A DNA stretch of 32,000 nt, taken from Acaryochloris marina MBIC11017. GTDB lineage: Bacteria > Cyanobacteriota > Cyanobacteriia > Thermosynechococcales > Thermosynechococcaceae. The stretch covers positions 30,001 to 62,000 of the forward strand of contig NC_009929.1 of NCBI RefSeq assembly GCF_000018105.1, in the 5' to 3' direction. Position numbers and translations under genes: made by a program. The notes below the pieces were generated by a model, which searched no databases, was not told the DNA's origin, and was given only the letters and a program-made list of their open reading frames with translations. Shown here piece after piece: positions 4,904 to 29,651 of the stretch (the stretch's first letter is position 1; each line of letters begins with the position of its first letter).

Positions 4904-5367
4904 TTTTTTGCAAATGAAGAAATAAAAAGTAAATAACTTATCCATAAAGAATAGAGAACATTAACTTGTTCTAAAGCCGATTAATCAAGATTATTGAGGT
5001 AAATATGATATAGTTCGCAAATACTAATAGTGCGATGGTTTTATTGCACCCGTATCCCGATCTAGCCTGAAATTTTAGGGTTCCTAGAAGGATATTCAAT
5101 GAAAAAACAGTTTTACAGTAATCTTTTACTTGATCTTTGGATTGCCGTTTGTGGTTACGATTACAGGATATTTTTACATTGAATTAAAGCATGTTGGGCC
5201 ACCGACTCTCGAACAATCACGGGTGCAGTATCCGACATGTGATCAGCGCCAGAGGTTCGTGACGGTCTGTGTGAAAGTAAGCAACTAGTTTAGGTGAATG
5301 GTGGCAGCGAAATAAAGCTGGAGTTGAGGACATTTTAGAAGATCAAGATAAGTGGGTACTTGCGTAA

Positions 5368-5823
5368 ATGACATATAGATATAAAGAAGATAAGCCAGAA
5401 AATTGGATTGATAGGGAGCATGAACTACCTGAAGATAATACTTTATGGAAGCAATATGAAATCTATATTGATATTTTTAAGTTCTATTTGGACACCACTT
5501 GGAAAGTAGTAACTTGGTTTTACGCAATTACTGGTGCAATTCTCGTCTATTATTTCGACCATGCAGATAACAATAATCCTTATCTTAGATATTCTTTAGT
5601 GCTACCAGCACTTTTGAGTATTGGATTCTTTATTATTTTTGGAAAAGGTGCTCAAAAAAATAAGAAACTTAATGAATGGCTTGATTATATTCGATCAGAA
5701 CTAGGTATTCCTGGTAGACCTCATACGGAAATACTTTTAATATTCTTAGAGCAAAGCAGGAACTTATTTGCTGCTGTCTTTTTAGGTTTAACAATTTTAT
5801 TTGTTTCTAGCTTCTTCTGGTAA
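5368..5823 (+). CDS. Hypothetical membrane protein (about 3 TM helices) in an AT-rich segment
   Basis: 151-aa ORF, visibly more AT-rich than the backbone. Hydrophobic helices are VVTWFYAITGAILVYYF, LVLPALLSIGFFIIF and LFAAVFLGLTILFVSSFFW. A terminator hairpin follows. Confidence 0.5.
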   Translation: MTYRYKEDKPENWIDREHELPEDNTLWKQYEIYIDIFKFYLDTTWKVVTWFYAITGAILVYYFDHADNNNPYLRYSLVLPALLSIGFFIIFGKGAQKNKKLNEWLDYIRSELGIPGRPHTEILLIFLEQSRNLFAAVFLGLTILFVSSFFW

Positions 5824-5873
5824 TCATGTTAGTATGCTACTTCGTTAGATTAATCGAGTTCAAAAGAATCTAT

Positions 5874-5900
5874 CTTGCAGTACTATTGCAAGCTTTTTTT
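5874..5900 (+). terminator. Rho-independent terminator candidate
   Basis: Stem CTTGCA (5874-5879) pairs with TGCAAG (5887-5892) across a 7-nt loop. A run of 7 T follows at 5894-5900, about 50 nt after the 5368-5823 ORF. Confidence 0.55.
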
Positions 5901-6396
5901 GGAAGCAGATGAGATCCTCATGTTGTATAGCTTTAACAATGTCTATCTTTATCTAAAATTGCTATGTAAGTGATGCTCTGTTTTAGATATTGATTGGACT
6001 TTTCTAATCTTTACTAGCATCAATTCCAGTCGTTTTTTCGTATTTGAGGGAGGTATATAGCTTCTGAGTATAATCAACCAAAAGTGTCCAATACATCGCT
6101 ATTTGCACAGATGTACAAAATTAGTGCTCAGCCTATAAAACGCTGAATCTATTGCTGTTAAGTAGTTTTCGGTAATTCTTTCTCTGATTTTCTATTCAAC
6201 AGATGTAAATAATTAGATGCATCGATGCCATTAATTTGGGTTGAGCAATGTACAGCATTATTTGCACACCTATCAACGCCAATTGTTAGATCCATGACTC
6301 CAGAACGGAATAACTGAATCTCAAATCAAGCTGAAGACTCGTGTAATTTCATGGCTTACCCCAGATAATTTAACGATATCTGCCATAAAAACAGCC

Positions 6397-6825
6397 ATGA
6401 CTGAATCTGTAACCCTAACAGCCACAGTAATTGCTAATCTTGCCTTTCAAGAATTCCTAAAAACCAGTGCTGGTGAAGCAGCAAAACAGTTCACTGCTGA
6501 TGCCCTTTCCTTGATGGGGAAACTCCGTCAGAAGATTTGGGATAGGCTACGCGGTAAACATGGCGCAGCAGAACAGGCATTAACCCAGGCAGAGACAGGT
6601 GATCAGAAAGCAATTGAAACTGTTGCTACTCTGCTAGATGTGGAAATGCTAGATGAAACTTTTGCTGGAGAACTACGACAGATAGCCCAAGAAATCAATA
6701 TTCATATCAGCAAGGACAACGACACCCAAGTTCAAAATAACTACGGTGGAACCAACTTCCAAAACAGTATTTCAGGTGGAGAAGTCTATCAAGGCGATAA
6801 CATCACCATCAATAAGACCATTTGA
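6397..6825 (+). CDS. N-terminal helical adaptor-like module (effector-associated-domain-like); upstream part of the interrupted NLR-like gene
   Basis: 142-aa ORF. Its first 100 or so residues are clearly homologous to the N-terminus of the 9569-10525 ORF (MTExxTLxAxVIANLAFQExLKxSAGE...FTADA...LRQKIWxRLRGK). It ends at a TGA (6823-6825) that is in frame with the NB-ARC ORF downstream. Confidence 0.7.
   Translation: MTESVTLTATVIANLAFQEFLKTSAGEAAKQFTADALSLMGKLRQKIWDRLRGKHGAAEQALTQAETGDQKAIETVATLLDVEMLDETFAGELRQIAQEINIHISKDNDTQVQNNYGGTNFQNSISGGEVYQGDNITINKTI
6823..6825 (+). other. Single in-frame TGA (context TGA-CTAG) separating the N-terminal module from the NB-ARC-TPR body
   Basis: ORFs 6397-6825 and 6994-9105 share frame 1. 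Codons 6826-6993 are open and encode the canonical pre-P-loop segment (...NLPRSGVKEFVGRNQKLQDLHEQLQNSQRIAITAIAG). That stretch contains no in-frame ATG, GTG or TTG. Confidence 0.8.
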
Positions 6826-6993
6826 CTAGAGTCGCCTGACCAGGACCGGGCAAAGTTAAATCCTCCTATTGGCATTCCCTCTAACCTTCCCCGAAGTGGG
6901 GTTAAGGAGTTTGTTGGTCGTAACCAAAAACTTCAAGACCTCCATGAGCAATTACAAAACAGCCAACGTATTGCAATTACAGCTATAGCTGGG

Positions 6994-9105
6994 ATGGGGG
7001 GCATTGGCAAAACAGAGCTGGCATTGCAATACGCCATAGCTCAATTAGAACAGGAGCAATACCCCGGAGGAATTTGTTGGCTAAGAGCCAGGGGCCAAGA
7101 GATAGCAACCCAGATAGTGACCTTTGCTCAGACTAAACTGGGTCTTACTTTCCCTGATGGATTAGATGAAAAAGGGCAGGTCGATTATTGTTGGGGACAT
7201 TGGCGAGAGGGAGATGTACTGGTTGTTCTCGATGATGTAACTGAGTTTGATGCAGTTGAACCCTATCTGCCTCCCTCAGATCCTAAGTTCAAAGTATTGC
7301 TGACAACTCGTTTGAACTTAGGCAGCTCTGTGCAGTCACTGTCCATTGAAGAACTAGATGAGGAGAGTGCATTGGCTCTACTTGAAACGCTAGTGGGACC
7401 AGACCGGATTCAATCACAATTGGAGGATGCTAAAACCTTATGTGGTTGGGTCGGTAACTTACCGTTAGGACTAGAGCTGTTGGGACGGTTTCTAGCGAGA
7501 AAATTAGACTGGTCCTTTGAAAAATTGATTGGGCGTCTTGAGTCCAAGAAATTAGCAGCGAAAGCTCTTATAACCAAAGAATCAGGAATGACGGCTCAGT
7601 TAGGGGTAGCTGCTGCATTGGAGTTAAGCTGGGTAGATCTAAGTGAGGCAGAACAAGAACTTGCCTGTTTATTAGGCGTGTTTGCAGTTGCTCCGATTCC
7701 TTGGCATCTGGTTGAAGAATGTCTATCTGATCGGGATAAAGACGATCTGGAGGACATTAGGGATGAAGGTTTAAGAGATAAAAATTTACTCAAACGAGTT
7801 GAAGAGAGAACCTACCAACTCCATCAAATTGTGAAGGAGTTCTTTCGGATTAAGTTGCAAGAATCTTCTGGTAATGGGGAGTCGCTGAAGCAGTCATTTT
7901 GTAAAGCAATGGTGGGAATTGCTCAGGGTATTGGAAACAATCCAACGATTGATGTAATTGCAGGGATGAGTGCCAGCATTCCCCATCTAGAGGAACTTGT
8001 CAGACAATGGATAGACATTCTGAGTGATGATGACTTAACCTGGCCCTATGTCGGCATCGGTCGATTTTATGAAGGGCAAGGGAACTATGGATTAGCTCTG
8101 CCTTTGTATCAAGAATGCCTGGAACAGACAAAAAAAAGATTCGACAGCGAACACCCCTCTGTCGCTCAAAGCCTCAATAACCTGGCATTACTCTACGACA
8201 ACCAAGGACGGTACACAGAAGCAGAACCCCTCTATGTCCAAGCCTTGGAGATGAGACAGAATCTCTTGGGTACCGAACACCCCGATGCCGCAACGAGCCT
8301 CAATAACCTGGCAGTACTCTACTACGACCAAGGGCGGTACACAGAAGCCGAACCGCTCTATTTGCAAGCCTTGGAGATGAGAAAGAAGCTCTTGGGCAGC
8401 GAACACCCCGGTGTCGCTCTTAGCCTCAATAACCTGGCAGCACTCTACACAAACCAAGGGCGGTACACAGAAGCCGAACCGCTCTATTTGCAAGCCTTGG
8501 AGATGAGAAAGAAGCTTTTGGGCAGCGAACACCCCGATGTCGCAACTAGCCTCAATAACCTGGCAGCACTCTACACAAACCAAGGGTGGTACACAGAAGC
8601 CGAACCCCTCTATTTGCAAGCCTTGGAGATGCAAAAGAAGCTCTTGGGCAGCGAACACCCCGATGTCGCTCAAAGCCTCAATAACCTGGCAGCACTCTAC
8701 GACAACCAAGGGCGGTACACAGAAGCCGAACCGCTCTATGTGCAAGCCTTGGAGATGAGAAAGAAGCTCTTGGGCAGCGAACACCCCGGTGTCGCTCTTA
8801 GCCTCAATAACCTGGCAGCACTCTACACAAACCAAGGGCGGTACACAGAAGCCGAACCGCTCTATGTGCAAGCCTTGGAGATGAGAAAGAAGCTCTTGGG
8901 CAGCGAACACCCCGATGTCGCTCAAAGCCTCAATAACCTGGCAGCACTCTACGACAACCAAGGGCGGTACAGCGAGGCAGAACCCCTCTATTTGCAAGCC
9001 TTGGAGATTTACCAGAAGCTCTTGGGCGATGAACACCCAAACACAGTTAAAGTTCAGAGTAATTTTGACGATTGCCGCCGAAGAATAAAGGAGTCGAATA
9101 CTTAG
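6994..9105 (+). CDS. NB-ARC (STAND) NTPase with C-terminal TPR array, NLR-like. The frame is open from 6826, and the listed ATG lies inside the P-loop.
   Basis: NB-ARC motifs are present: Walker A G-MGGIGKTE, Walker B VLVVLDDV, LLTTR, and a GLPL-type motif GNLPLGLELLG. Seven 42-aa TPR units of kinesin-light-chain type follow (SLNNLAxLYxxQGRYTEAEPLY). Confidence 0.85.
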   Translation: MGGIGKTELALQYAIAQLEQEQYPGGICWLRARGQEIATQIVTFAQTKLGLTFPDGLDEKGQVDYCWGHWREGDVLVVLDDVTEFDAVEPYLPPSDPKFKVLLTTRLNLGSSVQSLSIEELDEESALALLETLVGPDRIQSQLEDAKTLCGWVGNLPLGLELLGRFLARKLDWSFEKLIGRLESKKLAAKALITKESGMTAQLGVAAALELSWVDLSEAEQELACLLGVFAVAPIPWHLVEECLSDRDKDDLEDIRDEGLRDKNLLKRVEERTYQLHQIVKEFFRIKLQESSGNGESLKQSFCKAMVGIAQGIGNNPTIDVIAGMSASIPHLEELVRQWIDILSDDDLTWPYVGIGRFYEGQGNYGLALPLYQECLEQTKKRFDSEHPSVAQSLNNLALLYDNQGRYTEAEPLYVQALEMRQNLLGTEHPDAATSLNNLAVLYYDQGRYTEAEPLYLQALEMRKKLLGSEHPGVALSLNNLAALYTNQGRYTEAEPLYLQALEMRKKLLGSEHPDVATSLNNLAALYTNQGWYTEAEPLYLQALEMQKKLLGSEHPDVAQSLNNLAALYDNQGRYTEAEPLYVQALEMRKKLLGSEHPGVALSLNNLAALYTNQGRYTEAEPLYVQALEMRKKLLGSEHPDVAQSLNNLAALYDNQGRYSEAEPLYLQALEIYQKLLGDEHPNTVKVQSNFDDCRRRIKESNT
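8158..9039 (+). repeat. Seven tandem 126-bp (42-aa) near-identical TPR-coding repeats
   Basis: The 126-bp period is read directly from the sequence. Units 3 and 6 differ by a single residue at protein level. Differences cluster at the first 4 residues of each unit and at the LY-xx-Q positions. Confidence 0.9.
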
Positions 9106-9568
9106 CTATTTGTTGATTAATAGCTTTAGGTGTGCAGTAATTATGTATAATCGGCATTTTTAAATTTATTCAATTGCCAAAAATTGAAACCCAGTAAAAT
9201 CGTCAATCTGAGCACTAATTTTGTACATCTGTGCAAATAGCGATGTACTGTACAAAAAGCTTTCATGTCCATTATTTCTTTAAACGCACAAGAATGAGCG
9301 ATTTATAGAATTAGCTGCACAACTTTGAATCGCTACAAACTAAATTCAGAGGCTGATCTGCTGATTTATAGGCAATGATACTCAAGAAGTGGAATTAAAG
9401 TTTTAGCTGCACTTTTTCTGAGAAAAAAATAAATTCTTTAAGGAATTAGTTGCATTATTTCTTCCAATCAGTCGATTCTCTATTGGTCTGAATCTCAAAT
9501 TTCGTTGAAGGGTCGCGTAAATTTATAGCTTTGCCCAGATAATTTAACGATGTCTGCCAAAAAAAGCC

Positions 9569-10525
9569 ATGACTGAACCTATTACCTTGTCAGCCGCAGT
9601 AATCGCTAATCTTGCCTTTCAAGAAATCCTAAAATCTAGTGCAGGTGAGGTTACAAAAAAGTTCACTGCTGATGCAATAGCTAAGATGAGCGAGCTTCGT
9701 CAAAAGATTTGGGCCAGACTAAGGGGTAAGTCTCAAAAAGTTGATGATGCTTTAAAGAATACTGAGCAAGGAGATTCTTCAGCTCTATCAACTATTGCCA
9801 AGAATTTAGATGTAGTGATGGATGAGGACGCTGAGTTTGCATCTCAAGTTCAGGCCATAGCTCAAACTATCAATGCTGGCAAAATTCTTGACCAGAGCAA
9901 TATGACACAGAATCTTTCAGATAATGCCAAGGGTTGGCAGACCAAAGTGGAAGGGGGAGTGGCGTATATTGGAGAAATTCATCAGCAGTTTACTGGAGAT
10001 CCAATACTTAAATACGAGCCTCCAACCATCAATTCTATAAGAGGCTTTCATAACGGCATGCAGTCTTTGGTTTTGGAAGACATTGGAAATGTACCCGTTA
10101 CAATAACTAAGGAAAAACACGAAGGAATTAATGGTGAATGTGATTACACAATTGAATTTGAGATTTTTAATAAAAGTAGAGCGGATCTGAAAATAAAAGC
10201 CATACTTGTCGAAGTCTTGTCTGTAGAACCGATTGAATCGATCATTGACTACATACCCTTATGTGGGTTGGGTGAAGCTCGACTGTATTCTTGCCGAGTT
10301 GATGGACGACCAGGAATATATCGATCGAACTTGTTAGAAAGTACATTTAGTGGATATATATTTCTTCAGAGCGGTGAGCAAGAAACTATCCAAATTGCTA
10401 TTAATACCAAGGATGAAGGGAAATACACGCTACGTTCTTTATTGGAATTATCAAGTGTTGATGGACTGAAGACAATATCAGTTGGTGAGTTTAACAATGT
10501 ACGATTTCTCAAACTTTCGAGATAG
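9569..10525 (+). CDS. Protein with the same N-terminal adaptor-like module as 6397-6825, fused to an unrelated beta-rich C-terminal domain (candidate effector or partner)
   Basis: 318-aa ORF. The N-terminal 100 or so residues are homologous to the NLR N-terminal module. About 95 nt upstream are also conserved at roughly 80 percent (CCCAGATAATTTAACGATRTCTGCCA...GCCATGACTGAA). Confidence 0.7.
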   Translation: MTEPITLSAAVIANLAFQEILKSSAGEVTKKFTADAIAKMSELRQKIWARLRGKSQKVDDALKNTEQGDSSALSTIAKNLDVVMDEDAEFASQVQAIAQTINAGKILDQSNMTQNLSDNAKGWQTKVEGGVAYIGEIHQQFTGDPILKYEPPTINSIRGFHNGMQSLVLEDIGNVPVTITKEKHEGINGECDYTIEFEIFNKSRADLKIKAILVEVLSVEPIESIIDYIPLCGLGEARLYSCRVDGRPGIYRSNLLESTFSGYIFLQSGEQETIQIAINTKDEGKYTLRSLLELSSVDGLKTISVGEFNNVRFLKLSR

Positions 10526-10689
10526 GCTCGATCATGAGAATGCTTTAGCGACAAGAATAGAATAAAAACTATAGCGCGCAGGTGCATCAAAGTATCTGTG
10601 AAAAATGAAGGTCCAGTTTCACTACTTTCCAGTGCCCATGTGTTTCACAAATGTTCGTGTTCACATGCAAGTAGTTGTCCGCTTCTACT

Positions 10690-10860
10690 CGGACTTGTCT
10701 GAGTGTGGTGGTAAGGTCGCACCTTATGCCGGGAGCAATGTTCTTAAACTAGGCCACCGCGTCTAGTTTGAGAATACAGGATAAACCTGTCGTGGCAGCT
10801 ACTAAATTGCCCCCGAGCAAGGGGGAACCCTAGAATCTCAAGGCCAACTCAAATTCTGAT
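10690..10860 (+). ncRNA. Type V-K (Cas12k) tracrRNA-like sequence; boundaries approximate
   Basis: The region is non-coding and structured, with hairpins TAAGGT-CGC-ACCTTA (10712-10726), ACAGG-ATAAA-CCTGT (10776-10790) and CCCCC-GAGCAA-GGGGG (10810-10825). GTGGCAGCTACTAAATTGCCCCCGAGCAAGGGGGAACCCTAG resembles, from memory, the 3' part of published Cas12k tracrRNAs (...CACCCCCGATCAAGGGGGAACCCTCC). Two collinear antiparallel anti-repeat patches are visible. AACCCTA (10826-10832) pairs with TAGGG(G)TT in the repeat. CCAAC-TCAAAT (10844-10854) pairs with ATTTGA(GG)GTTGG in the repeat. Confidence 0.55.
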
Positions 10861-11027
10861 TTCTTTAGATTGACTTGGTGCATTCCTCAAAACCCTCTAT
10901 GATTAAAAACTTTGGTGATTAGCCTCTTATCTTTTTGGATGCTTCTTTGCCAAGGTGATTCAATATGATTGTGATCCGCGATTTAATTGCTCAAAGTCAT
11001 GCCAGGACTAGGCTAATTAGAAGGTGG

Positions 11028-11136
11028 GTTGCAATGACATTTGAGGGTTGGTAGGGGTTGAAAGTCAGATCGGCTCTAGGCCATCGTCTTTTTCAAAACG
11101 TTGCAATGACATTTGAGAGTTAGTTGGGGTTGAAAG
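11028..11136 (+). CRISPR. Mini CRISPR array: two 37-nt repeats separated by one 35-nt spacer
   Basis: R1 at 11028-11064 is GTTGCAATGACATTTGAGGGTTGGTAGGGGTTGAAAG. R2 at 11100-11136 is GTTGCAATGACATTTGAGAGTTAGTTGGGGTTGAAAG, with 3 mismatches to R1. The spacer lies at 11065-11099. The 37/35 geometry and the GGGGTTGAAAG 3' end are typical of V-K repeats. The array lies about 170 nt downstream of the tracrRNA-like region and 174 bp from the element's right tip. Confidence 0.55.
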
Positions 11137-11346
11137 AACGTCGGCTTCCCAAATTCTTTTGTAATCCAGTTTTCTAAAAGATTTTTGTGCATGTAAAACT
11201 TTAAAACTGGAGGTTTTTATTTTCTTTATCTGCTAACTATTGAAAAAACGCAAATTCGTAAATTTTGCAGCTAATTCCTTAAAGCTGTGCGTTTAAAGAA
11301 ATAATGGACATTTCAATTTTTTTTAGATCAACCAATTCTGATTCCT

Positions 11347-11364
11347 AAATTCTGGGTAAGTTTC
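11347..11364 (+). promoter_or_regulatory. Conserved operon-leader box, copy 1 (AAATTCTGGGTAAGTTTC)
   Basis: One of four copies of AATTCTGGGTAA(T/G)(G/T)TT, each 30-55 nt upstream of a backbone gene start (here 11387/11393). Confidence 0.5.
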
Positions 11365-11386
11365 AACAGACCATCACGCAACTCTG

Positions 11387-13999
11387 TTGATCATGCCTCG
11401 ATATCCCAGAAGAATACTCAGCCTACTCCCCGCTGCTGCACTGGCACTGCAATCGTTTCCCGCAGTGGCTCAGATCATCAACCAACAAACCCTAGAAGCA
11501 GCCAACCATAACACCCAAACCCAGGAAGAGGGAACGATACCCGGACTCTACTATGACCCATCTGGTGTTGTGGCTCCAACCTTTGCCAATAGTCAAGCCT
11601 CAGAGACAGCGGGGAGTATTCGCTTACCCGCAGGTTCCCAAGCTCCTTCATTCCTTAACGGTGCATGGCCCGCGAATGCCAGCTCAGATCAAGTTCTCAA
11701 GATCGGTCACCTGAAAGATCATCCGCAGTTTAAGCAGTTTACGGAATTGAATATCAATGAGGTCTTAAAAGCCAGTGGCAAAGACCCTTCAACCGTAACC
11801 CTGTCTGAGGTGCCAATCGCATCAACAATGACAGTGGGAGAGTATCTGCAAATTAATCCTGGTGCTGCTGAGCAGTCCTTAGAAGACGCTCCCGCAGTGG
11901 TGCAATCTGCATTTGGGTACTACGAGGATGAACCCCTACTGCACGAACCCATTGATCAAACAGACATTGTTTTTATAGAACAGAAAGCATCCAACCCAGA
12001 GATATCTGATATCCCCGCTGAAGATTTACTACAGGGAGACTGGGGTGAAGCCTTCACCCAAGAGGAACAGAGTCAGCTATCGAAGACCCTCAGCAAGGTT
12101 AATGAACGTCTGCGAAAACTACCCTTAAAACAGCTTATTCCTTTAGCTCAAGGGATTGTCAGTGGCGATTGGGATACAGTCAAAAAGCAGGCCAAAGATC
12201 TAGCAATCAAGGAAGGTTCTAAAGTTCTGATCAAAGAGCTGATGAAGAATCCCAAAATCGCCAAAGCTATCAAGGATTTACCCTTGGGAACCTTACCCCT
12301 AGATAAGCTGGGATTGGCTGATGCGCCAGGGGTGGGAGAGACAGCGATAAAGGATATCCCAGGTTCTGAAGATAAGACCCTTAATCAAGTCCCTGGTCTT
12401 AAAGATGTGCCTCTTGACCAGATTGATTTAGCGTTGGCGTTGAGCTTCACTCGACTGGATTTGCTGGGGCGAATTGACACGACTGATGCTGCCGCAGTGG
12501 TCGATAACATCGACTATGTGATCAGTGGTGGGACCAAAGACCAAATTCCAAAACCTGCACCCTGTAAAATCGATGGGAAAGATACCAAGAACTGTCGTCA
12601 CTTTGAGTTAGATAACGTTGATGGGGGTGGCGAACCCACGAAGTTATCAGGGCAAGCCTGGATTCAAGGGCCTGATCAGATGGTGCCCGGTGGGCAAGGC
12701 TGGTTGAGAATTATAGCCAATGGCAAGGAAGTCACGGGGATTAAGCCTTGGGTGGCAGGCAATGTCAAGCTGTACCTGGAAGACATGAGGGAAGGGTCAG
12801 GGGATGAGGTGGGATCTGCCCGGTTGTCCACGGCATGGCAGTTTGGCTATTCAGATCCAATTACTGGAAGTCATTACACCCCTCATTTCATCAGGATTCC
12901 AACCCCCTGGCGCATTAAAGAAGGTGGAATCATGTTGCTTCTAGCTCGATCTGGGGGCATTCCTGATGCAATCCGTAATCTCCAGCCCAGTCAACAGCAG
13001 TTTTGCAGGGAACCTACATTGGTTGCCTCAGCACAAACGAACAATGCCACCGATTCAAATCAGACGACTGGTGGTGCTGATGGCAGCTCACCCCCCCATA
13101 GTGAACAACATCATATAAATCAGTATTTGGCCCGCATTGCTTATGGTGAATCTACTGGAGGTACTGATATTGGGCCTCATCCCGATACTGGTGCATATGG
13201 TGAGTACCAGTTTATACAGAAGAGTCGAGATACGCTTTATACCAGGACGGGTATTGATGCTTGGTCTGAAAGTAAAGAAGAACGTGATCGTGCTGCATTA
13301 GCTTGGATTGATATTTATGGTCAGGAAGTCGGCCATGACATCATCAGCTATATTCGTTCAGGAAATTTTGAGGCTGCTGATTATTTGTTGGGGCGTAATC
13401 AGTTCACCAGTCTCCCTGGAGGAGCTGAAGATGTGAAGTGGAATGATCCAGTTGCCCTTGAAGTCTATGGTCCTAATGGCAATGCTCCAGTTACACCTAC
13501 AGGTGCAAGTGCATCTTCCGGGGTTCCATTCTGTCAACCAACCAATGGCTCAGCTACTTTTGCCCAAGGTCCAGCACCGGAAGCAGGGCAGGTAAATGCA
13601 AGTATTTATCAAGCTGCAAGACAAATGTATGGGTTTGATACTTCAAGCGGGCCTGAAGGAGGAAGTCAAGCATGTGCTTGGGCTGTTGATCATGTCCTGG
13701 CTAAGGCAGGTATCGAACCGATGCGTACAGATAATGTCTTAAACGTCTTGGATAAGATGAAATCAGGAAGAGGTACTAGAATTAATTCTGGACAAGCTCA
13801 ACCAGGGGACATTATTCTCTCGAAGGGGTATGACCATATTGGAATATGCATGACGGCTGGTTGCACTGAAGTACTATCAAACTCATCCAGTAAAGCTTCA
13901 TTCTCTTGGCGATCTGATGGAACTTTCGATGGATGGTATGATCGCTCACGTTTTTTACATGAGGCACCTACGGAAGAAATTTGGAGAATCCAACGATGA
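11387..13999 (+). CDS. Secreted bifunctional cell-wall hydrolase for transfer: lysozyme/SLT-like domain plus C-terminal NlpC/P60-CHAP-like cysteine peptidase
   Basis: 870-aa ORF (TTG at 11387; the ATG at 11393 is the more likely start). It has a signal peptide, LSLLPAAALALQSFPAVAQ. The motifs AYGESTGG...GAYGEYQF resemble glycoside-hydrolase motifs. The C-terminus has a Cys...His pair (SQACAWAV ... GYDHIGIC) typical of NlpC/P60-CHAP. Confidence 0.65.
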   Translation: MIMPRYPRRILSLLPAAALALQSFPAVAQIINQQTLEAANHNTQTQEEGTIPGLYYDPSGVVAPTFANSQASETAGSIRLPAGSQAPSFLNGAWPANASSDQVLKIGHLKDHPQFKQFTELNINEVLKASGKDPSTVTLSEVPIASTMTVGEYLQINPGAAEQSLEDAPAVVQSAFGYYEDEPLLHEPIDQTDIVFIEQKASNPEISDIPAEDLLQGDWGEAFTQEEQSQLSKTLSKVNERLRKLPLKQLIPLAQGIVSGDWDTVKKQAKDLAIKEGSKVLIKELMKNPKIAKAIKDLPLGTLPLDKLGLADAPGVGETAIKDIPGSEDKTLNQVPGLKDVPLDQIDLALALSFTRLDLLGRIDTTDAAAVVDNIDYVISGGTKDQIPKPAPCKIDGKDTKNCRHFELDNVDGGGEPTKLSGQAWIQGPDQMVPGGQGWLRIIANGKEVTGIKPWVAGNVKLYLEDMREGSGDEVGSARLSTAWQFGYSDPITGSHYTPHFIRIPTPWRIKEGGIMLLLARSGGIPDAIRNLQPSQQQFCREPTLVASAQTNNATDSNQTTGGADGSSPPHSEQHHINQYLARIAYGESTGGTDIGPHPDTGAYGEYQFIQKSRDTLYTRTGIDAWSESKEERDRAALAWIDIYGQEVGHDIISYIRSGNFEAADYLLGRNQFTSLPGGAEDVKWNDPVALEVYGPNGNAPVTPTGASASSGVPFCQPTNGSATFAQGPAPEAGQVNASIYQAARQMYGFDTSSGPEGGSQACAWAVDHVLAKAGIEPMRTDNVLNVLDKMKSGRGTRINSGQAQPGDIILSKGYDHIGICMTAGCTEVLSNSSSKASFSWRSDGTFDGWYDRSRFLHEAPTEEIWRIQR

Positions 14000-14421: not shown

Positions 14422-16203
14422 ATGAGTCACCATACTGAACAACCTATACAACCCCCTCAGCAACCTAGTCCCCAGATTGACTTTCAGGTGTATGTGCTGG
14501 GTGGTCTTTTCCTTGTCATCCTCGTCCTCGTCGCCATCACCAAAGGAGAAATAGGACACAAGAAGCAAAAGCTTGGAGATGCCCGCACGGCAAAAGATAA
14601 TGAGATGAGGAAGGCTCAACATCTCGCCTATGATGCTCTTGAGAAACGTGAGCGGAACAAGATTACGCTGTGGGCAGGGGAACCTAAAGGGCTGACGATT
14701 GATAACGAGAATCGTGAGATATTCATACCCCGCGATCTGAATTCCTGGATCTTCTCCTACCTTGAGGAGCATTTTCTAACCTTTGGTTCTAGTGGTTGCG
14801 GTAAGACCTTCTCCCTTATGGCCCCCCTGCAACGAGCCATGATTAAGTTAGGGTTACCCCTGTGTGTTTTCGATGCCAAAGGCCATGAAGAGACCGAGGA
14901 TCAGGCTTGCCCATCTTCAGAGATTGCGGGCTATGCCAGACTTCATGGCTACAAGGTGAAGATCATCGCTCCTGGCGATAAAGATTCTGATGTCTTTAAC
15001 ATCTTCGACATGATGGAGGCTAAGGATGATAGACCTGCCTACGAAGACAAAGATAACGCCTATGTGATTTCTGATGTTCTCAATGAGAACATGCAGATGA
15101 ACAATGCAGATTCAGGTGATCAGTTCTTCCCCTTGGCCTCGAAACAACTGATGCAGGCCATGTTTATGTGGGCCAAGATGCTTGATCCAGATGGGGATGA
15201 ATTAATCCTCGCCTACTATCTCCTCAAGCGGGTGGCTCAAGTTGGTGCGGCTGGGATTGCTGCCTTAGATCTTCCCCCTTATGTTCAAATTGCGTTTGAC
15301 CAATTTCTCGTCAGTGCGGGAAGTCCTGAGACAGCAGCCAGTATTGCGGGTACAGCTTTGATCTTGTTTGGGCGAATGATTACCCCAGCGACCACAGCAA
15401 CATTCTGTGGCAAGTCCACGGTGGATTTGAATGTCACTGGCAAGACACTGGTTATCTTCAGATTGAATCCCAAGATGAAAGCTGCTACGGGTCCAATGTT
15501 GGCAACCACTATTCAGTGTTTCCTTCTCTCGAACTGCTATACAGCTCGTAAACAACCCTTGGCCTTTTTCTTAGATGAGTTCCAGATGATCAAGATCTGT
15601 GAAATTCAAAAGATTCTGACCGTTGCTCGATCCAATGGTGTGAGCCTCCTCTTTGCCACACAGGGAATGAGCTTTATTGAAGAGACTTATGGTGAAAAGA
15701 GAGCCATTGGCATTGTGGAAGGGTGTAAAACCCAAGTCCTAGGCCAGCTCAACGGGAACAAAGTCGCTGAATACTACGGTAAGCAGTTGGGCAAATCAGA
15801 GGTTGTCACTCGCAGTAAATCAAAATCAACTGGGAAATCCTCGTCAACTTCTAGGAATGATAGTCCTCATGCCAAAGATTTAGTTTCAATGGGTGAATTA
15901 ATGGGATTGCCCCAAGGCTCCTTCTACGTGCTGAGTCGAGCGATTGGTAATAAGAGGCTGGCTCGTATTCCCATGAGACGGAACTTCGTTATTCCTAAGT
16001 GGGAAACGGATGATGCCAAGCGAGGGGTTAAAGAATGGTTCAAATATCGAAAGGTTGCCCGCAAGCGTAGCAAGGCCAAGTCGATGTCAAACGAGGAGAT
16101 GATCCGGTATCGAGAAATGTCCGTTGCGATATTGCCAGATCCTAAAGATGATGACGACGATGATGGAGGCGATACCTTAGCAAAGGGAATTTCATCACTG
16201 TGA
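14422..16203 (+). CDS. Type IV coupling protein (VirD4/TraG family)
   Basis: 593-aa ORF with an N-terminal TM helix (VYVLGGLFLVILVLVAI), Walker A FGSSGCGKTFS and Walker B FFLDEFQM. The C-terminal tail is basic and then acidic. Confidence 0.8.
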   Translation: MSHHTEQPIQPPQQPSPQIDFQVYVLGGLFLVILVLVAITKGEIGHKKQKLGDARTAKDNEMRKAQHLAYDALEKRERNKITLWAGEPKGLTIDNENREIFIPRDLNSWIFSYLEEHFLTFGSSGCGKTFSLMAPLQRAMIKLGLPLCVFDAKGHEETEDQACPSSEIAGYARLHGYKVKIIAPGDKDSDVFNIFDMMEAKDDRPAYEDKDNAYVISDVLNENMQMNNADSGDQFFPLASKQLMQAMFMWAKMLDPDGDELILAYYLLKRVAQVGAAGIAALDLPPYVQIAFDQFLVSAGSPETAASIAGTALILFGRMITPATTATFCGKSTVDLNVTGKTLVIFRLNPKMKAATGPMLATTIQCFLLSNCYTARKQPLAFFLDEFQMIKICEIQKILTVARSNGVSLLFATQGMSFIEETYGEKRAIGIVEGCKTQVLGQLNGNKVAEYYGKQLGKSEVVTRSKSKSTGKSSSTSRNDSPHAKDLVSMGELMGLPQGSFYVLSRAIGNKRLARIPMRRNFVIPKWETDDAKRGVKEWFKYRKVARKRSKAKSMSNEEMIRYREMSVAILPDPKDDDDDDGGDTLAKGISSL

Positions 16204-17145: not shown

Positions 17146-18877
17146 GTGCCAGCTCCTATTAAACCTCAACAGGTTCATCTTTATATGCAGACAAAACAAT
17201 CCGGCTCTTCTCAAGAAACAGCAGCTGCTAAAGCTGGCATTTCTACCCGCACAGCCCACCGCATTGATAGTGGTACTCATCGTCCCCAACGCGGCCGCCC
17301 TCATGACTGGAAAACCCGTGAAGATCCGCTGGATGGATTATGGGAATTAGAACTTGAGCCGATGTTAGAGCGTGAGCCTCGATTAGAAGCGACTACTCTA
17401 TTTGAGACCTTACAAGAGAACCATCCTGGGCAATATGATGACAAGATCAGAACCGTGCAACGCCGAACCGCTAAATGGAAGGCAGCTCATGGCAAGCCCA
17501 AAGAAGTGATGTTCAAAATTCAACATCATCCTGGGGAGATGGGACAGTCAGACTTCGCTCAGCTCAAAGGTTTCAGTGTGACGGTTCAGGGTGAAGCCTT
17601 TCACCATATCTTGTATCACTATCGACTGAGCTATAGCGGCTGGCAGTACGTGCAGGTGATTCAAGGCGGAGAAAGTTTTATCGGCTTATCCCAAGGGCTA
17701 CAAAATGCTCTAACCGCCTGTGGTGGCGTGCCCAAGATTCATCGTACCGATAGTCTGAGTGCGGCTTATCGCAATACTGGCGGCCGCAATCCCCAGCTGA
17801 CCCAGTTGTATTCGACTCTGTGTGACCATTACCGGATGCAGCCAACACGCAACAATCTGGGTGTCTCTCATGAGAATGGCGGAATAGAGGGGTCTCATGG
17901 CTATTTCAAACGACGCCTGTGCCAAGCCCTGTATCGTCGAGGCAGCTTTGACTTTGACTCGGTAGCTGAGTATCAGCAGTTCATCGAGCAAGTCATCGCC
18001 AAGCTGAATGCCAAGTGCCAAAAAAAGGTTTGCACTGGAGCTGCCCACCTTACAGCCCTTGCCCAGATACCGAACTCCTGATTATGAAGTGCGCAGTGCC
18101 AAAGTCAGCTGCAATAGCACGATTGCCGTCCGCTGTGTCCTTTACACAGTCCCCTCTCGCTTAATTGGCCACCGCTTGAAATTACACCTATACCATGACC
18201 GCCTTGTCGGTTTCTTAGGCACCACTCCCGTAGTGGAATTGGCGCGGGTCCATGTCCATGGCTCTGAGAAGAAAAGACGCGCTCGCAGCATCGATTACAA
18301 GCATGTGGCAGAAAGTCTCAGGAGAAAGCCAAACGCGTTTCTCTACTGCCAATGGCAATCAGAGCTACTGCCCAATCTTCAGTGGCATCAGCTGTGGGAA
18401 TCACTCAAAGCTAATTTTGAGCAGGACCAGGCCGCACGATTAATCACCGAAGCCCTCTATATCGCTGCAACTCAAGATCAAGAATCTCAGGTGGCTGACT
18501 ACCTACAAACTCAACTGGAACAGTCCACCCTGACCTTGAGCAGATTAAAACAAGCCTTTGAATTCAAGCTCTCGACTGAGCAATATCCTGACGTCACCTC
18601 ACAACAGCACGATTTATCTGACTATGATCAACTCCTCCACAGCAGACCCGGACAACCCATACCAGTTGCTGATGACAACCCTAAAACAGTTGCGGTTGAG
18701 GCATTTCCTCGACGAGTGGCAGAGCATCGAGCATCAAGCGACTCAGGAGAATTGGTCCTACGCCCAGTTTCTGTTGGCTTTAGCTCAAGGCGAAGCCAGC
18801 CGTCGGGAGCAGAATCGGATTTCACGCGCTCTAACCGAAGCGCAGCTGCCTTACGGAAAGTCCTGGACCAATTTTGA
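17146..18877 (+). pseudogene. istA: IS21 istA transposase, frameshifted at an A7 run
   Basis: ORF 17146-18081 (GTG start; HTH; DDE-type segments GQSDF, HRTDS, ENGGIEGSHGYFK) continues in the +1 frame as ORF 18008-18877 (...KKRFALELPTLQPLPRYR...). The switch maps to AAAAAAA at 18020-18026. The last 85 or so codons overlap istB and look like out-of-frame read-on. Confidence 0.7.
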
Positions 18878-19421
18878 GTTTGCCCATGTTCCCACCCTTA
18901 ATCCAGCTGCTCTCATGGAGTTTGCCCAAACGACTCACTGGCTAGAGTCCGGTAGCAACATTCTAATTTTTGGGCCGAGCGGAACAGGGAAAACACACGT
19001 CAGCTCTGCATTAGGAGCTTCTATTATTGAGTTGGGTAAGCGAGTAAAATTTGTCACAGCCACAACCCTGGTGCAACAACTACAGCTGGCCAAACTTCAA
19101 TTGGAATTGCAGAGTCTCTTGTCCAAACTTGACCGCTATGATCTGCTTATCATTGATGATCTCGGTTATGTCCAAAAGTCCGATGTTGAAACCTCGGTAC
19201 TGTTTGAGTTGATTGCTCACCGGTATGAGCGAAAGAGCCTACTCATCACGGCTAATCAACCTTTCAGTCAATGGGACAGCATCTTTCCTAACTCAATGAT
19301 GACCGTGGCTGCCATTGATCGCTTAATTCACCACGCCACCATTTTCGAGATGCAAGCAGAAAGCTTCCGCAAACAAGAAGCGGCCAAACACACAGCCAAG
19401 TCTCAAAAGACTGACAGCTGA
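18624..19421 (+). CDS. istB: IS21 IstB AAA+ helper ATPase
   Basis: Walker A is IFGPSGTGKTH and Walker B is LLIIDDLGY. The start is taken at the ATG at 18624 (MINSST...), next to the conserved IstA C-terminal DLSDYDQLL. The track ORF starts at 18558. Confidence 0.8.
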   Translation: MINSSTADPDNPYQLLMTTLKQLRLRHFLDEWQSIEHQATQENWSYAQFLLALAQGEASRREQNRISRALTEAQLPYGKSWTNFEFAHVPTLNPAALMEFAQTTHWLESGSNILIFGPSGTGKTHVSSALGASIIELGKRVKFVTATTLVQQLQLAKLQLELQSLLSKLDRYDLLIIDDLGYVQKSDVETSVLFELIAHRYERKSLLITANQPFSQWDSIFPNSMMTVAAIDRLIHHATIFEMQAESFRKQEAAKHTAKSQKTDS

Positions 19422-19639: not shown

Positions 19640-21148
19640 ATGAAGTTAGAACCAAAAAGTTTGGCCTATCTAATTGACATTAAACAGAATGCTATCGAAT
19701 CCAAGGATCAGGGTGAAGTGGTTCGTGCAACCGTCGCTGATCCTTGGGATATTGAACCTGACCAAGTGGTTGATCAAGCCCTTGATAAATTAGAGCCACT
19801 AGAATCAGAAGCTATTGAAGTAGATGCAGTCGTAGTCGAACCTGAGCAACTACCCTCCCAAGCCCAATCGAATGAGCGCCCTCTCGTGAATGAGTTCATT
19901 GAGAAAGCAGGGGAGAATATCAAGCAGGGTGCAAATGACTTTGTTGCCCAAGCCAATGCGTTCCTTGCAGAGAACATTCAGGTGGAGTACCAGCCTATCC
20001 CTCAACAGGATGGCACTGTAGCTTTGGCTGTGGATACCCCTTCACTACTCACTCAGATGCAGTTAGCGGGTGGGGAATATGCTCAAGCAGCTAAAGAAAA
20101 AATGCAAAGTCTTGCACCACAGCAATATGAGCGGGTTTCCGAGGCAGTCAAAAACACCCAAGAGCGTGTGAAGAGTGCCTTAGAATCGGTGTCTGATACC
20201 GTGCAAGGAAGATTGAAGGAACCCTCATTAGGTCAACGTATTGGGGAGCTTGAGCACAGCGTAGGTCTACGGCTTGACAGCATGGGGCTAGGAATTGAGG
20301 ATCTATTCCAAAAAGTTTTTGATATTGAGCTAGATAAGCATGGGACTGAGTTTGCACTCACACGAGAGATTGGGGAGTTTAAGGTTGAAATCGAAGCATT
20401 GCGCTCTCAGGTTGGTGGACTAGAAGGCCAAATCTCGGCCATGCAGCAGCAACAAGTGAAATCCCAGGAGATGATTGCAGCACTGCAATCCCCCAAACCG
20501 CAGCTCAATAATCCTCGTCTCAGTCAATGGCAGTCTAACTTTGTATCCACCATGAAAGACCGATTCCAGGCAGTCAAACAGTACATTGGCGAGAAGATCA
20601 ATCAGGTCAAGGCTAAAGTGTCAGATTTGGTAGAGTCCTTCAAACACAAAATGGTTGAGCGTTTTCAGCCCATTGCTGACCGTCTAAGACCAGTTTATGA
20701 ACAGGCTCAAGATCTGAAGCAGAAAACAGGTGAGCAAATCAATCAAGTCAAGGCCACTGTTGGCGAGAAGGTCGATCACGCTAAACAGTTCGTGGGTGAG
20801 AAGGCGATGGACTGGCAGGCTCAAGCTCTAGCTGCCACTGCAACCTATGTACTCGCTCAGCAAGGCAAGCAAACCCCACAGGGCACCACCATCTATGAAG
20901 GGCAGCATTTTGACTTTCACAGGAACCAGGGTAACTCTTTGCTGATTGTCGATAAGGCAACTCAACAGCCTGTTTATAAAAATGGTGAGTTCAACCAGAA
21001 TGCCCCCAAGGATGTGAAGGACAAGCTTGTCAAAGCAGCTCAAACGACTCAAAAAGGGATAGAGCAAAAGCAAGCTCACAAACAAGCTAAGGAACAAGCA
21101 CAGACTCAGAAGCCAAAGCCAAAAGTGGCAGCAGCCGCTAGGCGCTAA
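19640..21148 (+). CDS. Coiled-coil-rich hypothetical protein with a Lys/Gln-rich tail
   Basis: 502-aa ORF with repeated helical segments (QVKAKVSDLVE..., QVKATVGEKVD...). Its 3' end overlaps the convergent relaxase stop by 11 bp. Confidence 0.55.
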   Translation: MKLEPKSLAYLIDIKQNAIESKDQGEVVRATVADPWDIEPDQVVDQALDKLEPLESEAIEVDAVVVEPEQLPSQAQSNERPLVNEFIEKAGENIKQGANDFVAQANAFLAENIQVEYQPIPQQDGTVALAVDTPSLLTQMQLAGGEYAQAAKEKMQSLAPQQYERVSEAVKNTQERVKSALESVSDTVQGRLKEPSLGQRIGELEHSVGLRLDSMGLGIEDLFQKVFDIELDKHGTEFALTREIGEFKVEIEALRSQVGGLEGQISAMQQQQVKSQEMIAALQSPKPQLNNPRLSQWQSNFVSTMKDRFQAVKQYIGEKINQVKAKVSDLVESFKHKMVERFQPIADRLRPVYEQAQDLKQKTGEQINQVKATVGEKVDHAKQFVGEKAMDWQAQALAATATYVLAQQGKQTPQGTTIYEGQHFDFHRNQGNSLLIVDKATQQPVYKNGEFNQNAPKDVKDKLVKAAQTTQKGIEQKQAHKQAKEQAQTQKPKPKVAAAARR

Positions 21149-28729: not shown

Positions 28730-28829
28730 TGAACCGCTGAGGACTCGAACCTCAATCACCCCCTTCGTCAAGGCACTACTCAGAATACACTGATGGAGGA
28801 GGGTGCTTTACCGATTAAGCTAGCAGCTC
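28730..28829 (-). tRNA. tRNA-like gene with canonical acceptor, D and T arms but a 35-nt anticodon loop (CU-CCA...ACG-AA); possibly a pseudo-tRNA or a tRNA-derived regulatory RNA
   Basis: Read on the minus strand. The acceptor stem GAGCTGC pairs with GCGGTTC (2 G-U pairs) and the discriminator is A. U8 and A9 are present. The D arm is GCTT-AATCGGTA-AAGC. The anticodon stem is CCCTC/GGGGG, the variable loop is TGAT, and the T arm is TGAGG-TTCGAGT-CCTCA. The loop between the anticodon stem halves is CTCCATCAGTGTATTCTGAGTAGTGCCTTGACGAA, which is 35 nt rather than 7. No CCA is encoded. Confidence 0.55.
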
Positions 28830-29651
28830 GGATTGAATCATCCGTATAATTGGACTGGACTCTAGTTTATCTAAGCCATAAAGTTTCCGCAAGAGTGTTT
28901 CAAGACAATTCTTTACTCGGTCTGGATTACACTTGAGTTGTTTTAGCTTCTGAAGCGATAACGGAGAGTTCTCAGATTGAATGATTTTGAATACAGTATC
29001 AGCAAGCTGGCGATCTGAAGGTCTACTAGCTTGACATAGCTTGAAAGCAAGCTGTTTGACAACACGAGTAAATAGAATAAAATCATCAAACGACATATCC
29101 GAATATTTATTCGGGGCATTTAATTTACCGTAACTGCTGTGCGCTTTAACTTCTTCTTGAAGATGCAAAACTTTGGAATCTATTTTTGATACATCAATGT
29201 CAACATGAACAAATCGATTTCGCACCATTCTATAGTGATCAAATAATTCAACTTCTAAAGAACCAACAAGTCTTTTTGCTGCTTGATAATCTTGACAAAT
29301 ATTCTTGAGAATGCTTTTGAGCAGATCATCTTTTTTCTCATATCGCCAATCCGTTGAGAGAGGATGCTCATCTCGAAAACCTTCTAAGAATTCTTCTGCC
29401 TGTGCATAAACACTAATAATATAGAGTTGTGAGATATGGCTCCTCAGAAAGGGCATCTCAGAATCATCCACTCTAATACTATGTTTGGCTGATAATTCCT
29501 GAATATACTGATGAGCGCTTGTTGCTCTTGAGGAATTCACAATGAACTCTCGGATAGAAAGCTCAGTACATTCAACTATTGCATCAGACTTCCCTAAAGT
29601 CTTTTTGAGGCGTAACGTACAAGGCAGTCGAAATGAAGTTGGATTTGACAC
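28815..29651 (-). CDS. HEPN-domain protein (predicted RNase; Abi-like or RiboL-PSP-like)
   Basis: 278-aa ORF, AT-rich relative to the backbone. It has the HEPN Rx4H motif in typical form, YRMVRNRFVH. Its last 4 codons and stop lie inside the tRNA-like gene. Confidence 0.65.
   Translation of the reverse strand: MSNPTSFRLPCTLRLKKTLGKSDAIVECTELSIREFIVNSSRATSAHQYIQELSAKHSIRVDDSEMPFLRSHISQLYIISVYAQAEEFLEGFRDEHPLSTDWRYEKKDDLLKSILKNICQDYQAAKRLVGSLEVELFDHYRMVRNRFVHVDIDVSKIDSKVLHLQEEVKAHSSYGKLNAPNKYSDMSFDDFILFTRVVKQLAFKLCQASRPSDRQLADTVFKIIQSENSPLSLQKLKQLKCNPDRVKNCLETLLRKLYGLDKLESSPIIRMIQSELLA

Follow-up and report, generated by a model that had tools for sequence, protein, structure and literature searches.

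Two tandem insertions of probable non-autonomous type V-K CRISPR-associated transposon derivatives on an Acaryochloris conjugative plasmid

Ends, duplications and cargo of two adjacent elements

The stretch of DNA analysed here, 32,000 nucleotides of contig NC_009929.1 of Acaryochloris marina MBIC11017 (hereafter the window), belongs to a conjugative plasmid of Acaryochloris and holds two adjacent elements, A and B, each bounded by terminal inverted repeats and by a 5-bp target-site duplication. We consider it likely that they are two separate insertions of non-autonomous, helper-dependent deletion derivatives of a type V-K CRISPR-associated transposon (CAST) of the Acaryochloris type. In the naming used for V-K elements, the left-hand ends of both in the window are right ends (RE, the tnsB side) and the right-hand ends are left ends (LE). 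The elements, their duplications and their ends, together with putative sites of the TnsB type, are as follows:

6085–9254, plus strand: element A, a probable non-autonomous mini transposon of V-K CAST type, 3170 bp; terminal inverted repeat 45/47, ends matching the LE and RE profiles
6080–6084 (left) and 9255–9259 (right): target-site duplication AAAAG of A
6085–6311, plus strand: left-hand end of A (RE); RE profile E = 8.7e-38; about four putative TnsB-type sites (tip, 6107–6124, 6199–6222, 6250–6268), placed from repeat families
9089–9254, minus strand: right-hand end of A (LE); LE profile E = 1.2e-30; three putative TnsB-type sites (tip 9230–9254, 9215–9232, about 9128–9143), placed by alignment with CAST LEs
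9266–11310, plus strand: element B, a probable non-autonomous mini V-K CAST with a guide-RNA module, 2045 bp
9261–9265 (left) and 11311–11315 (right): target-site duplication TTTCA of B
9266–9492, plus strand: left-hand end of B (RE); RE profile E = 4.2e-67; four putative TnsB-type sites (9266–9290, 9300–9320, 9392–9412, 9436–9460), placed from repeat families
11141–11310, minus strand: right-hand end of B (LE); LE profile E = 3.8e-45; tip identical to that of the cas12k-bearing locus L006; three putative TnsB-type sites (tip 11286–11310, 11260–11284, 11187–11204)

The arms of A (6085–6131 and 9208–9254) are identical at 45 of 47 positions and have the tips TGTCCA and TGTACA, and those of B (9266–9290 and 11286–11310) are identical at all 25 positions with TGTCCA at both tips. 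The two elements are separated by 11 bp (9255–9265), in which a single C stands between AAAAG and TTTCA. Since the two duplications are different and both are intact, A and B are the products of independent transposition events. Perfect matches to AATTAGNTGC occur four times in the 32-kb window, against a chance expectation of about 0.24, and every one of them falls in an element end: on the plus strand in the left-hand ends at 6211, 9309 and 9444, and on the minus strand in the right-hand end of B at 11267. When the diverged copies detected by the repeat finder are included, there are four putative TnsB-type sites per left-hand end and three per right-hand end, an asymmetry which resembles that of ShCAST, where five TnsB sites in the RE and three in the LE go with a 5-bp duplication (PMC9527255). 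The initial annotation had given the same coordinates, repeat counts and duplications for A and B, all of which proved correct when read directly and recomputed, and the layout that it gave for the subterminal sites, with one direction inside each end and the opposite direction in the other end, agrees with the putative sites of both elements. Its assignment to the Tn7 family was likewise borne out, and could be sharpened to derivatives of type V-K CASTs through the homology of the ends to cas12k loci.

Neither element encodes a transposase, as had also been stated there. Pfam domains of a Tn7-type transposase, TnsC, TniQ or Cas12k were found in none of the open reading frames (ORFs) of the window, tblastn of Cas12k, TnsB, TnsC and TniQ from related loci against the window revealed no remnants (all E > 0.1), and three Acaryochloris Cas12k proteins gave no tblastn match in the window either. 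A and B are thus not CASTs by membership, as the defining genes were looked for and are absent. The genes that they do carry occupy the place and orientation of tnsB, reading inward from the RE:

6312–6396, plus strand: conserved upstream region, presumed cargo promoter and 5' untranslated region of A; 82% identical to 9488–9565 in B
6397–6825, plus strand: 142-aa adaptor-domain ORF of A
6826–9105, plus strand: NB-ARC (STAND) NTPase of A with TPR repeats (Pfam NB-ARC 4.6e-16, TPR_12 2.6e-132)
9569–10525, plus strand: 318-aa ORF of B, whose N-terminal part of about 137 aa is the adaptor domain of A

The upstream segment is common to A, B and all B-like mini elements described below. The two ORFs of A lie in one frame with a single TGA between them, and the first in-frame ATG falls within the P-loop (6994). 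An exhaustive search with the 142-aa ORF returned 239 homologous representative clusters, most of them stand-alone proteins of about 140 aa, while some homologues form the N-terminal domain of NB-ARC/TPR proteins (about 960 aa) or of TIR, CHAT-TRADD-N-TIR and GUN4-like proteins. This fusion pattern is typical for an adaptor domain of bacterial conflict systems, and the two ORFs of A resemble the fused adaptor-NB-ARC/TPR form split in two. As in the bacterial NLR-like STAND NTPases that have an N-terminal adaptor, an NB-ARC P-loop NTPase is followed by TPR repeats; unlike in those proteins, adaptor and NTPase are divided by the in-frame TGA. The arrangement of one stop within a common frame recurs in five of six related copies, the exception being that of plasmid pREC3 (loci examined: window 6823–6994; L002 6737–6786; L003 3716–3804; L016; L017), and could reflect either read-through or a recently split gene. 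In B, the same adaptor is fused to a C-terminal region of about 180 aa, which is unique and matches no family. The 318-aa ORF is unrelated to Cas12k, and an AlphaFold model of it was unusable (pLDDT 38). Judged by its domains, the cargo appears to be an immune-type gene set; PADLOC matched no defence model beyond a generic TPR match.

Relatives with cas12k and a family of mini elements

In the V-K CAST layout described by Ziemann et al. 2023 (PMC9938897), the LE adjoins a tRNA gene and the CRISPR array reads towards the LE; the repeats are 37 nt long, the anchor spacer has 17 nt, the gene for the trans-activating CRISPR RNA (tracrRNA) lies between cas12k and the array, and tnsB-tnsC-tniQ stand at the opposite (right) end. 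The initial annotation had pointed to autonomous elements with matching ends as a check on its reading, and two cas12k-bearing loci of this kind were found in other Acaryochloris genomes, L006 sharing the 25-nt LE tip of B and L008 having a homologous LE. A scan of species-representative genomes with the terminal 25-mer of B gave two contigs, from one Acaryochloris metagenome-assembled genome (MAG) only, and no full-length element having both ends. L006, in this Acaryochloris MAG, runs in the order Cas12k ORF (E = 3.6e-46 to ShCas12k in PDB), tracrRNA, array of five repeats, LE, 5 nt, and a tRNA-Gly(CCC) gene facing the element. Its CRISPR-proximal end is identical to the LE of B at 25 of 25 tip positions and at 83% over 283 nt, the region corresponding to B 10668–11027 is 87% identical, and its array repeat is nearly the same as that of B; overall, its tracrRNA, array and LE are 83–87% identical to their counterparts in B. 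L008, a chromosomal CAST of A. marina S15 (CP064923) which was located via its Cas12k protein, has the same arrangement, and its homology to B begins 31 nt past the cas12k stop and extends through tracrRNA and leader to the array and the end. Both loci have as their last spacer GAACGTCAGCTTCCCAA, which matches the tRNA-Gly gene behind a GTA protospacer-adjacent motif (PAM); the LE tip lies 65 nt from this motif. It may be noted that in L008 tnsC ends after 122 codons, cut by an IS4-like transposase gene (795–2539), and that its LE abuts a partial tRNA-Gly, made up of the protospacer and the 5' half, and not the whole gene (12958–13030).

The right-hand 166 nt of A align position for position with the LEs of L006, L008, B and the mini elements, with the shared landmarks TGTACA, TGCACAG, AATTAG, TTTCAA and TGCACA. 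L010, a second V-K lineage which occupies tRNA-Gly(UCC) in the MAG of L006, has clearly different ends that give no match, and the end similarity is specific for this reason. The LE alignment, the match to the RE profile and the specificity seen with L010 together suggest that A is a second end-subtype of the V-K family of B, that is, a more diverged homologue. The autonomous relatives that were found are chromosomal and lie beside tRNA-Gly, and among the Acaryochloris plasmids of PLSDB none encodes a TnsB of this type. The TnsB protein searches gave only a 129-aa fragment, and not the tnsB-side end of any autonomous Acaryochloris relative. A metagenome scan with the repeat of B gave 68 loci, namely 67 chance 17-mer matches and one CAST fossil, and scans of viral collections gave nothing relevant. 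The fossil (L069; metagenome contig Ga0209185_1000034, 1936–2195) lies beside tRNA-Gly(CCC), is without tracrRNA and cas12k, and comprises one complete repeat, an anchor spacer in which 4 nt are duplicated, and an LE with an insertion of about 44 nt.

REs of the B type followed by the adaptor ORF and the NB-ARC/TPR gene are present in several Acaryochloris plasmids. Copies with intact ends and duplications of their own are found on pREC3 of A. marina MBIC10699 (AAAAA) and on the MAG contig L007 (ACGGG); decayed B-like copies, counted at four other Acaryochloris plasmid loci, are diverged or lack the LE, and such copies lie upstream of mobF in pMB04, pMB08 and S15 plasmid 10, with others on S15 plasmid 15 and at the first of the sites in pMB04. 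None of these other mini elements has a tracrRNA or an array, and their LE homology to B starts at 11171, just past the anchor. From their ends and duplications, B and the pREC3 and L007 copies appear to constitute a dispersed mobile family devoid of transposase. Of the further copies that the initial annotation proposed to look for, those of B were encountered, in plasmids and in L007, but none of A. In S15 plasmid 15 and pMB04, a sequence of about 100 bp (GGGCATGTTCCGGGGGCTGGTGTTGAGTCGAAAATTGG...CCTCAGA) precedes the B-like RE (L002 5900–6001; L003 2880–2979) and is seen again directly after the TPR gene, in the place expected for the LE (L002 9420–9520; L003 6260–6360), which suggests that the LE was lost by recombination or that this is another kind of element.

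Guide-RNA genes of element B

The earlier picture of two ends enclosing cargo fits A, which is devoid of an RNA module, but falls short for B, in which a tracrRNA gene and a mini CRISPR array had been overlooked. These lie between the 318-aa ORF and the LE:

10534–10563, plus strand: predicted tracrRNA promoter, sigma-70-like, ATGAGA-18-TAGAAT
10566–10866, plus strand: Cas12k-type tracrRNA gene, with anti-repeats AACCC (10826–10830) and CCAACTCAAAT (10844–10854)
11028–11064, plus strand: CRISPR repeat 1, 37 nt, ending GGGGTTGAAAG
11065–11099, plus strand: spacer 1, 35 nt
11100–11136, plus strand: CRISPR repeat 2, 37 nt, differing from repeat 1 at 3 positions (92% identity)
11137–11152, plus strand: anchor (homing) spacer AACGTCGGCTTCCCAA, 16 nt

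The homology of B to the cas12k-linked loci begins at the −35 element of the promoter (10539), which is placed as in the relatives, and the deletion that removed cas12k would thus have spared exactly the RNA genes. Compared with the tracrRNA of B, that of the A. marina S15 CAST, which is located downstream of cas12k, is 85.6% identical and that of L006 87%. A consensus fold from an alignment of four loci, derived partly from B itself, comprises 70 pairs, 11 of which covary, and B forms all 70; Rfam holds no family for this RNA. As read from the sequence, repeat 1 offers GGGTT and ATTTGAG..GTTGG as pairing partners for AACCC and CCAACTCAAAT respectively, and the RNAduplex energies of repeat versus anti-repeat, being no different from those of shuffles, were not used. 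The array reads towards the LE, as in the published V-K layout. Compared with the tRNA-Gly(CCC) anchor of the relatives, GAACGTCAGCTTCCCAA, the anchor AACGTCGGCTTCCCAA has lost the first G and has one A>G change. There is no tRNA-Gly at the plasmid insertion site, and no protospacer for spacer 1 was found in the window, the fetched loci or PLSDB. Combined together, these features suggest that B keeps the complete RNA module of its parent CAST, consisting of promoter, tracrRNA, leader and a two-repeat array with anchor. B is a newly seen variant, a mini-CAST which retains only the RNA module and none of the proteins.

The odds that this module functions are roughly even. In view of the decay of the array it may be a relic, and we give an equal chance to tracrRNA and array being the inert remains of a decaying internal deletion of a CAST, with RNAs that are silent or that cannot be loaded onto Cas12k. 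With 3 mismatches in 37 nt the two repeats of B are not identical, in contrast to the uniform arrays of the autonomous relatives; owing to the missing first G, the PAM position on tRNA-Gly is occupied by TAG instead of GTA, and the A>G mismatch falls at position 7 of the 16-nt anchor (position 8 of the 17-nt anchor of the relatives); other fossils are also known, namely L069 and the S15 CAST with its IS-broken tnsC. On the other hand, the deletion endpoint leaves the tracrRNA promoter exactly intact, every consensus pair of the tracrRNA is retained at about 85% sequence identity, repeat 1 pairs with the anti-repeat of B itself (ATTTGAG..GTTGG with CCAACTCAAAT), and the A>G change in the anchor could suit a tRNA-Gly variant of another host. 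That B is a working "guide-carrying satellite", a 2-kb transposon expressing its own tracrRNA and CRISPR RNAs, which are loaded onto the Cas12k of a resident CAST, and borrowing TnsB, TnsC and TniQ, seems rather unlikely to us. If true, B would insert at targets which it specifies itself, including homing to tRNA-Gly after conjugation into a CAST-bearing host, and it would be a parasite of an RNA-guided transposon that contributes RNA only. Two Logan contigs that contain the ORF of B (L004, L005) stop at window positions of about 9301/9312 (TnsB site 2) and at exactly 10652 (tracrRNA), a hint that those genomes contain other copies of both sequences, perhaps within further mini elements or a resident CAST.

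The insertion site and presumed mobilisation in trans

Synteny between plasmid pREC3 and the window extends to both sides of A and B, and the B-like element of pREC3 lies at nearly the same position as these, 3 bp off. As its duplication, AAAAA, differs from TTTCA of B on both sides simultaneously, this insertion arose independently; and as an independent insertion of the same orientation lies only 3 bp away, the plasmid site is a real hot spot, with three insertions within 7 bp. A, B and the pREC3 element share one orientation, with the LE towards the downstream gene, which encodes an M23/VanY-type peptidase in the transfer region. The fixed determinant of the hot spot most likely sits to the right of the elements, on the LE side:

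11316–11377, minus strand: LE-proximal flank, likely hot-spot determinant, with a T8 run at 11317–11324

The converse possibility, in which the tnsB-side end would be the V-K LE and the target would lie to the left, was rejected, as in the native loci and in the published layout (PMC9938897) it is the array-side end that faces the target. With the determinant on the right, the insertion of A must have preceded that of B, which would then have landed between A and the target, in the manner of tandem arrays at Tn7 attachment sites. A may also have come second, in which case its target would lie inside the right end of B, where by our own count a GTG stands 63 nt from the tip of A.

A conserved block of about 66 nt, beginning with CTGGGTAAGTTTCAACAGACCATCAC (11352) and reaching into the downstream gene, is identical in the window plasmid and pREC3, while the DNA between this block and the elements has diverged between the two plasmids. 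The distance from the LE tip to the block is 41 nt for B, 44 nt for the pREC3 element and 47 nt for A (with B removed). On the strand facing the elements there are two GTN motifs, GTC (11369–11371) and GTG (11375–11377); GTG lies 64, 67 and 70 nt, and GTC 58, 61 and 64 nt, from the LE tips of B, the pREC3 element and A respectively, as compared with 65 nt in native homing. This geometry is as a single Cas12k guide would give, and A/T-rich indels could explain the scatter. In a tentative reading, to which we give somewhat less than an even chance, a Cas12k guide would be directed against the conserved block upstream of the M23-peptidase gene. The initial annotation had proposed that both insertions were steered by one fixed anchor or guide and that a protospacer with a GTN PAM be sought 60–66 bp from the insertion point. 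The third, independent insertion in pREC3 lends support to a fixed determinant, and the GTN motifs are present 58–70 nt from the tips, but no matching spacer was found, and steering by one guide is thus not demonstrated. When protospacers for the two spacers of B and the seven non-anchor spacers of L006 and L008 were sought in the window, the fetched loci and PLSDB, only the tRNA-Gly anchors matched. The uninterrupted site predicted earlier, CAACCAAAAGCTTTCAATTTT, did not turn up in any collection; pREC3 alone has the flank, and its site is occupied too, and distant homologues of the downstream M23/VanY-type gene were too diverged to show an empty site.

It is also possible, at a level of confidence that we put a little lower, that the site was chosen independently of RNA, the TnsB, TnsC and TniQ of a helper inserting unguided beside an A/T-rich stretch, so that the clustering would reflect a local hot spot together with selection in favour of intergenic insertions that do no harm. 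ShCAST has been described to transpose frequently into AT-rich DNA without Cas12k, a process in which TnsC filaments on A-rich tracts direct downstream insertion with the same left-right polarity and with reproducible hot spots (PMC10370016). This precedent suits the site in that the AT content reaches 76% over the 25 bp beside the LE, at the 97.6th percentile for the window with A and B removed, and the stretch holds an A8 run on the strand facing the LE, one of two A/T homopolymers of at least 8 nt in the element-free window; the lack of a matching spacer also agrees with it. However, the A-tract is absent from pREC3 at the same site, the segment 10–35 bp from the tip, where TnsC would be expected, is only 64–68% AT, 49 windows of at least 84% AT in the sequence are unoccupied, and the insertion site of L007 is not AT-rich. 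Three insertions by elements of two end types within 7 bp are, moreover, tighter than "semi-targeted". Of these two readings, we slightly favour the guided one.

Some further observations concern the surroundings of the hot spot. The DNA to its left (5247–6079) is unrelated to that of pREC3 (L001 3001–4888) though the plasmids are otherwise syntenic: the window has an 8xMP-like membrane-protein ORF (5368–5823), and pREC3 a 381-aa ORF and repeats. Remnants of element ends were not detected left of the hot spot; unrelated DNA at this place would be expected if older insertions get pushed leftwards and decay. In pREC3, the B-like element is immediately preceded by a pair of degenerate CRISPR-like repeats with the ending CCCCTATTAGATTGAAAT (L001 4600–4760), in a segment which has no counterpart in the window. 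On the right, the flank CAACCAATTCTGATTCC (11325–11355) resembles the 3' segment of the tracrRNA, CAACTCAAATTCTGATTTC (10844–10863), on the same strand, probably by chance, as both are A/T-rich.

Mobilisation of A and B in trans, like the choice of their insertion site, is inferred. Both keep the ends that would act in cis, with about four sites in the RE and three in the LE, and carry as cargo the adaptor ORF with the NB-ARC/TPR NTPase (A) or the same adaptor with another C-terminal domain (B). Neither would move alone; TnsB, TnsC and TniQ, with or without Cas12k, would be supplied by a resident V-K CAST. Several points weigh against this account. Ends of the A type were not found elsewhere, A being a single copy so far, and the match of the left-hand ends to those of a helper would follow only from the common 25-nt tip and the site consensus. 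The array of B is decayed in its repeats (3 positions) and in its anchor (first base lost, one mismatch). The eight known spacers of this CAST family match neither the conserved block nor PLSDB plasmids, and a GTN at a suitable distance is fairly frequent by chance. Finally, no helper CAST is evident in the window's own host, for which the data are short Logan contigs only, and matching CASTs were seen only in other Acaryochloris genomes.

An origin of A and B from another Tn7-like lineage, either TnsD/TniQ-targeted or a type I-B/I-D CAST, with ends that are only superficially V-K-like, we regard as very unlikely. Cyanobacteria do have many Tn7-like families (PMC9881144), and no autonomous partner with ends identical to those of A was found; but the LE, array and tracrRNA of B are homologous to loci that encode Cas12k, the 166 nt of the LE of A can be aligned with the V-K set and score E = 1.2e-30 on the LE profile, and the clearly different ends of L010 indicate that the profile is specific. 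That A and B are not two events at all, but one composite element or the outcome of recombination or duplication at an ancestral insertion, is hardly tenable: their cargo 5' regions are 79–82% identical and the B-like element of pREC3 at almost the same place could suggest common descent, but each has its own intact 5-bp duplication, with outer flanks (AAAAG and TTTCA) that do not fit insertion as one unit, their ends differ throughout, and point mutation cannot yield a duplication differing on both sides at once, as that of pREC3 does from that of B.

The rest of the window conforms to a conjugative plasmid. The closest plasmid records are from A. marina and Acaryochloris sp. 'Moss Beach', at an identity of 90% or less. 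Its transfer genes include:

14422–16203: TraG-type coupling protein gene
21138–25172, minus strand: MOBF/TrwC relaxase gene

An insertion of the IS21 family lies at 17146–19421, in which the istA-like ORFs are apparently split (17146–18081 and 18008–18877), the second having a Mu-transposase C-terminal domain, and istB (18558–19421) overlaps the istA-like ORFs. A tRNA-like gene on the minus strand (28730–28829) has an Rfam match of 46.9 bits but no ARAGORN call. Its anticodon region is enlarged by an insert of about 29 nt, and it overlaps the ORF at 28815–29651 at the 3' end of the latter. About 50 nt downstream of it is a hairpin with GTTGAAAG. The tRNA-like gene was rejected as an attachment site, since it adjoins no end-like sequence and since GTTGAAAG, placed inside the hairpin, points the wrong way.

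Set beside known systems, A and B share with type V-K CASTs the TGT/ACA tips, the 5-bp duplication and the asymmetric arrays of putative TnsB sites, and B shares in addition the 37-nt repeats ending GTTGAAAG, a tracrRNA with conserved motifs and folds, and an array that reads towards the left end and closes with a tRNA anchor spacer, in B an altered one; the spacing of 65 nt between GTA PAM and left end is seen in the autonomous relatives from Acaryochloris. They differ from CASTs in having no cas12k, tnsB, tnsC or tniQ, in their size (2.0 and 3.2 kb as against tens of kb) and in their site, which is on a conjugative plasmid and not beside a tRNA gene; further, the anchor spacer of the Acaryochloris family follows a full-length last repeat and not a separate truncated repeat. 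Laboratory mini-CAST and mini-Tn7 donors resemble A and B in having two ends and cargo with the proteins provided in trans, as would be the case here, but A and B are natural and carry kb-sized immune-type cargo, and in the laboratory systems the guide-RNA genes are on the helper, unlike in B, where they are on the donor. With natural non-autonomous derivatives similar to miniature inverted-repeat transposable elements, the B family has in common dispersed copies with their own duplications (B, pREC3, L007). CRISPR mini-arrays of viruses and mobile elements consist of one or two spacers with repeats of the host type, without cas genes, and exploit the Cas proteins of the cell (PMC11656645). 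B is similar in its host-type repeats and its lack of cas genes, but its effector would be the pseudonuclease Cas12k guiding transposition, it brings its own tracrRNA, and the outcome would be insertion and not cleavage or exclusion of a competitor. A full-text search of open-access literature found no description of natural non-autonomous CASTs, which is weak evidence of novelty, and no paper that deals with Acaryochloris and Cas12k together.

Natural CASTs have been described as self-contained, and a family that rides on helpers would mean that RNA-guided transposons, too, have non-autonomous parasites. The fact that B keeps the guide-RNA genes only poses the question whether guides encoded by a donor redirect the machinery of its helper. 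Through their NLR-like cargo and their location on conjugative plasmids, the elements could connect chromosomal CASTs with defence genes that spread horizontally. The hot spot is a natural test case for guided versus RNA-independent V-K transposition, which is a practical concern in genome engineering, and engineering may also profit from the natural ends, which are minimal at about 230 and 170 bp, and from the compact cassette of tracrRNA and array.

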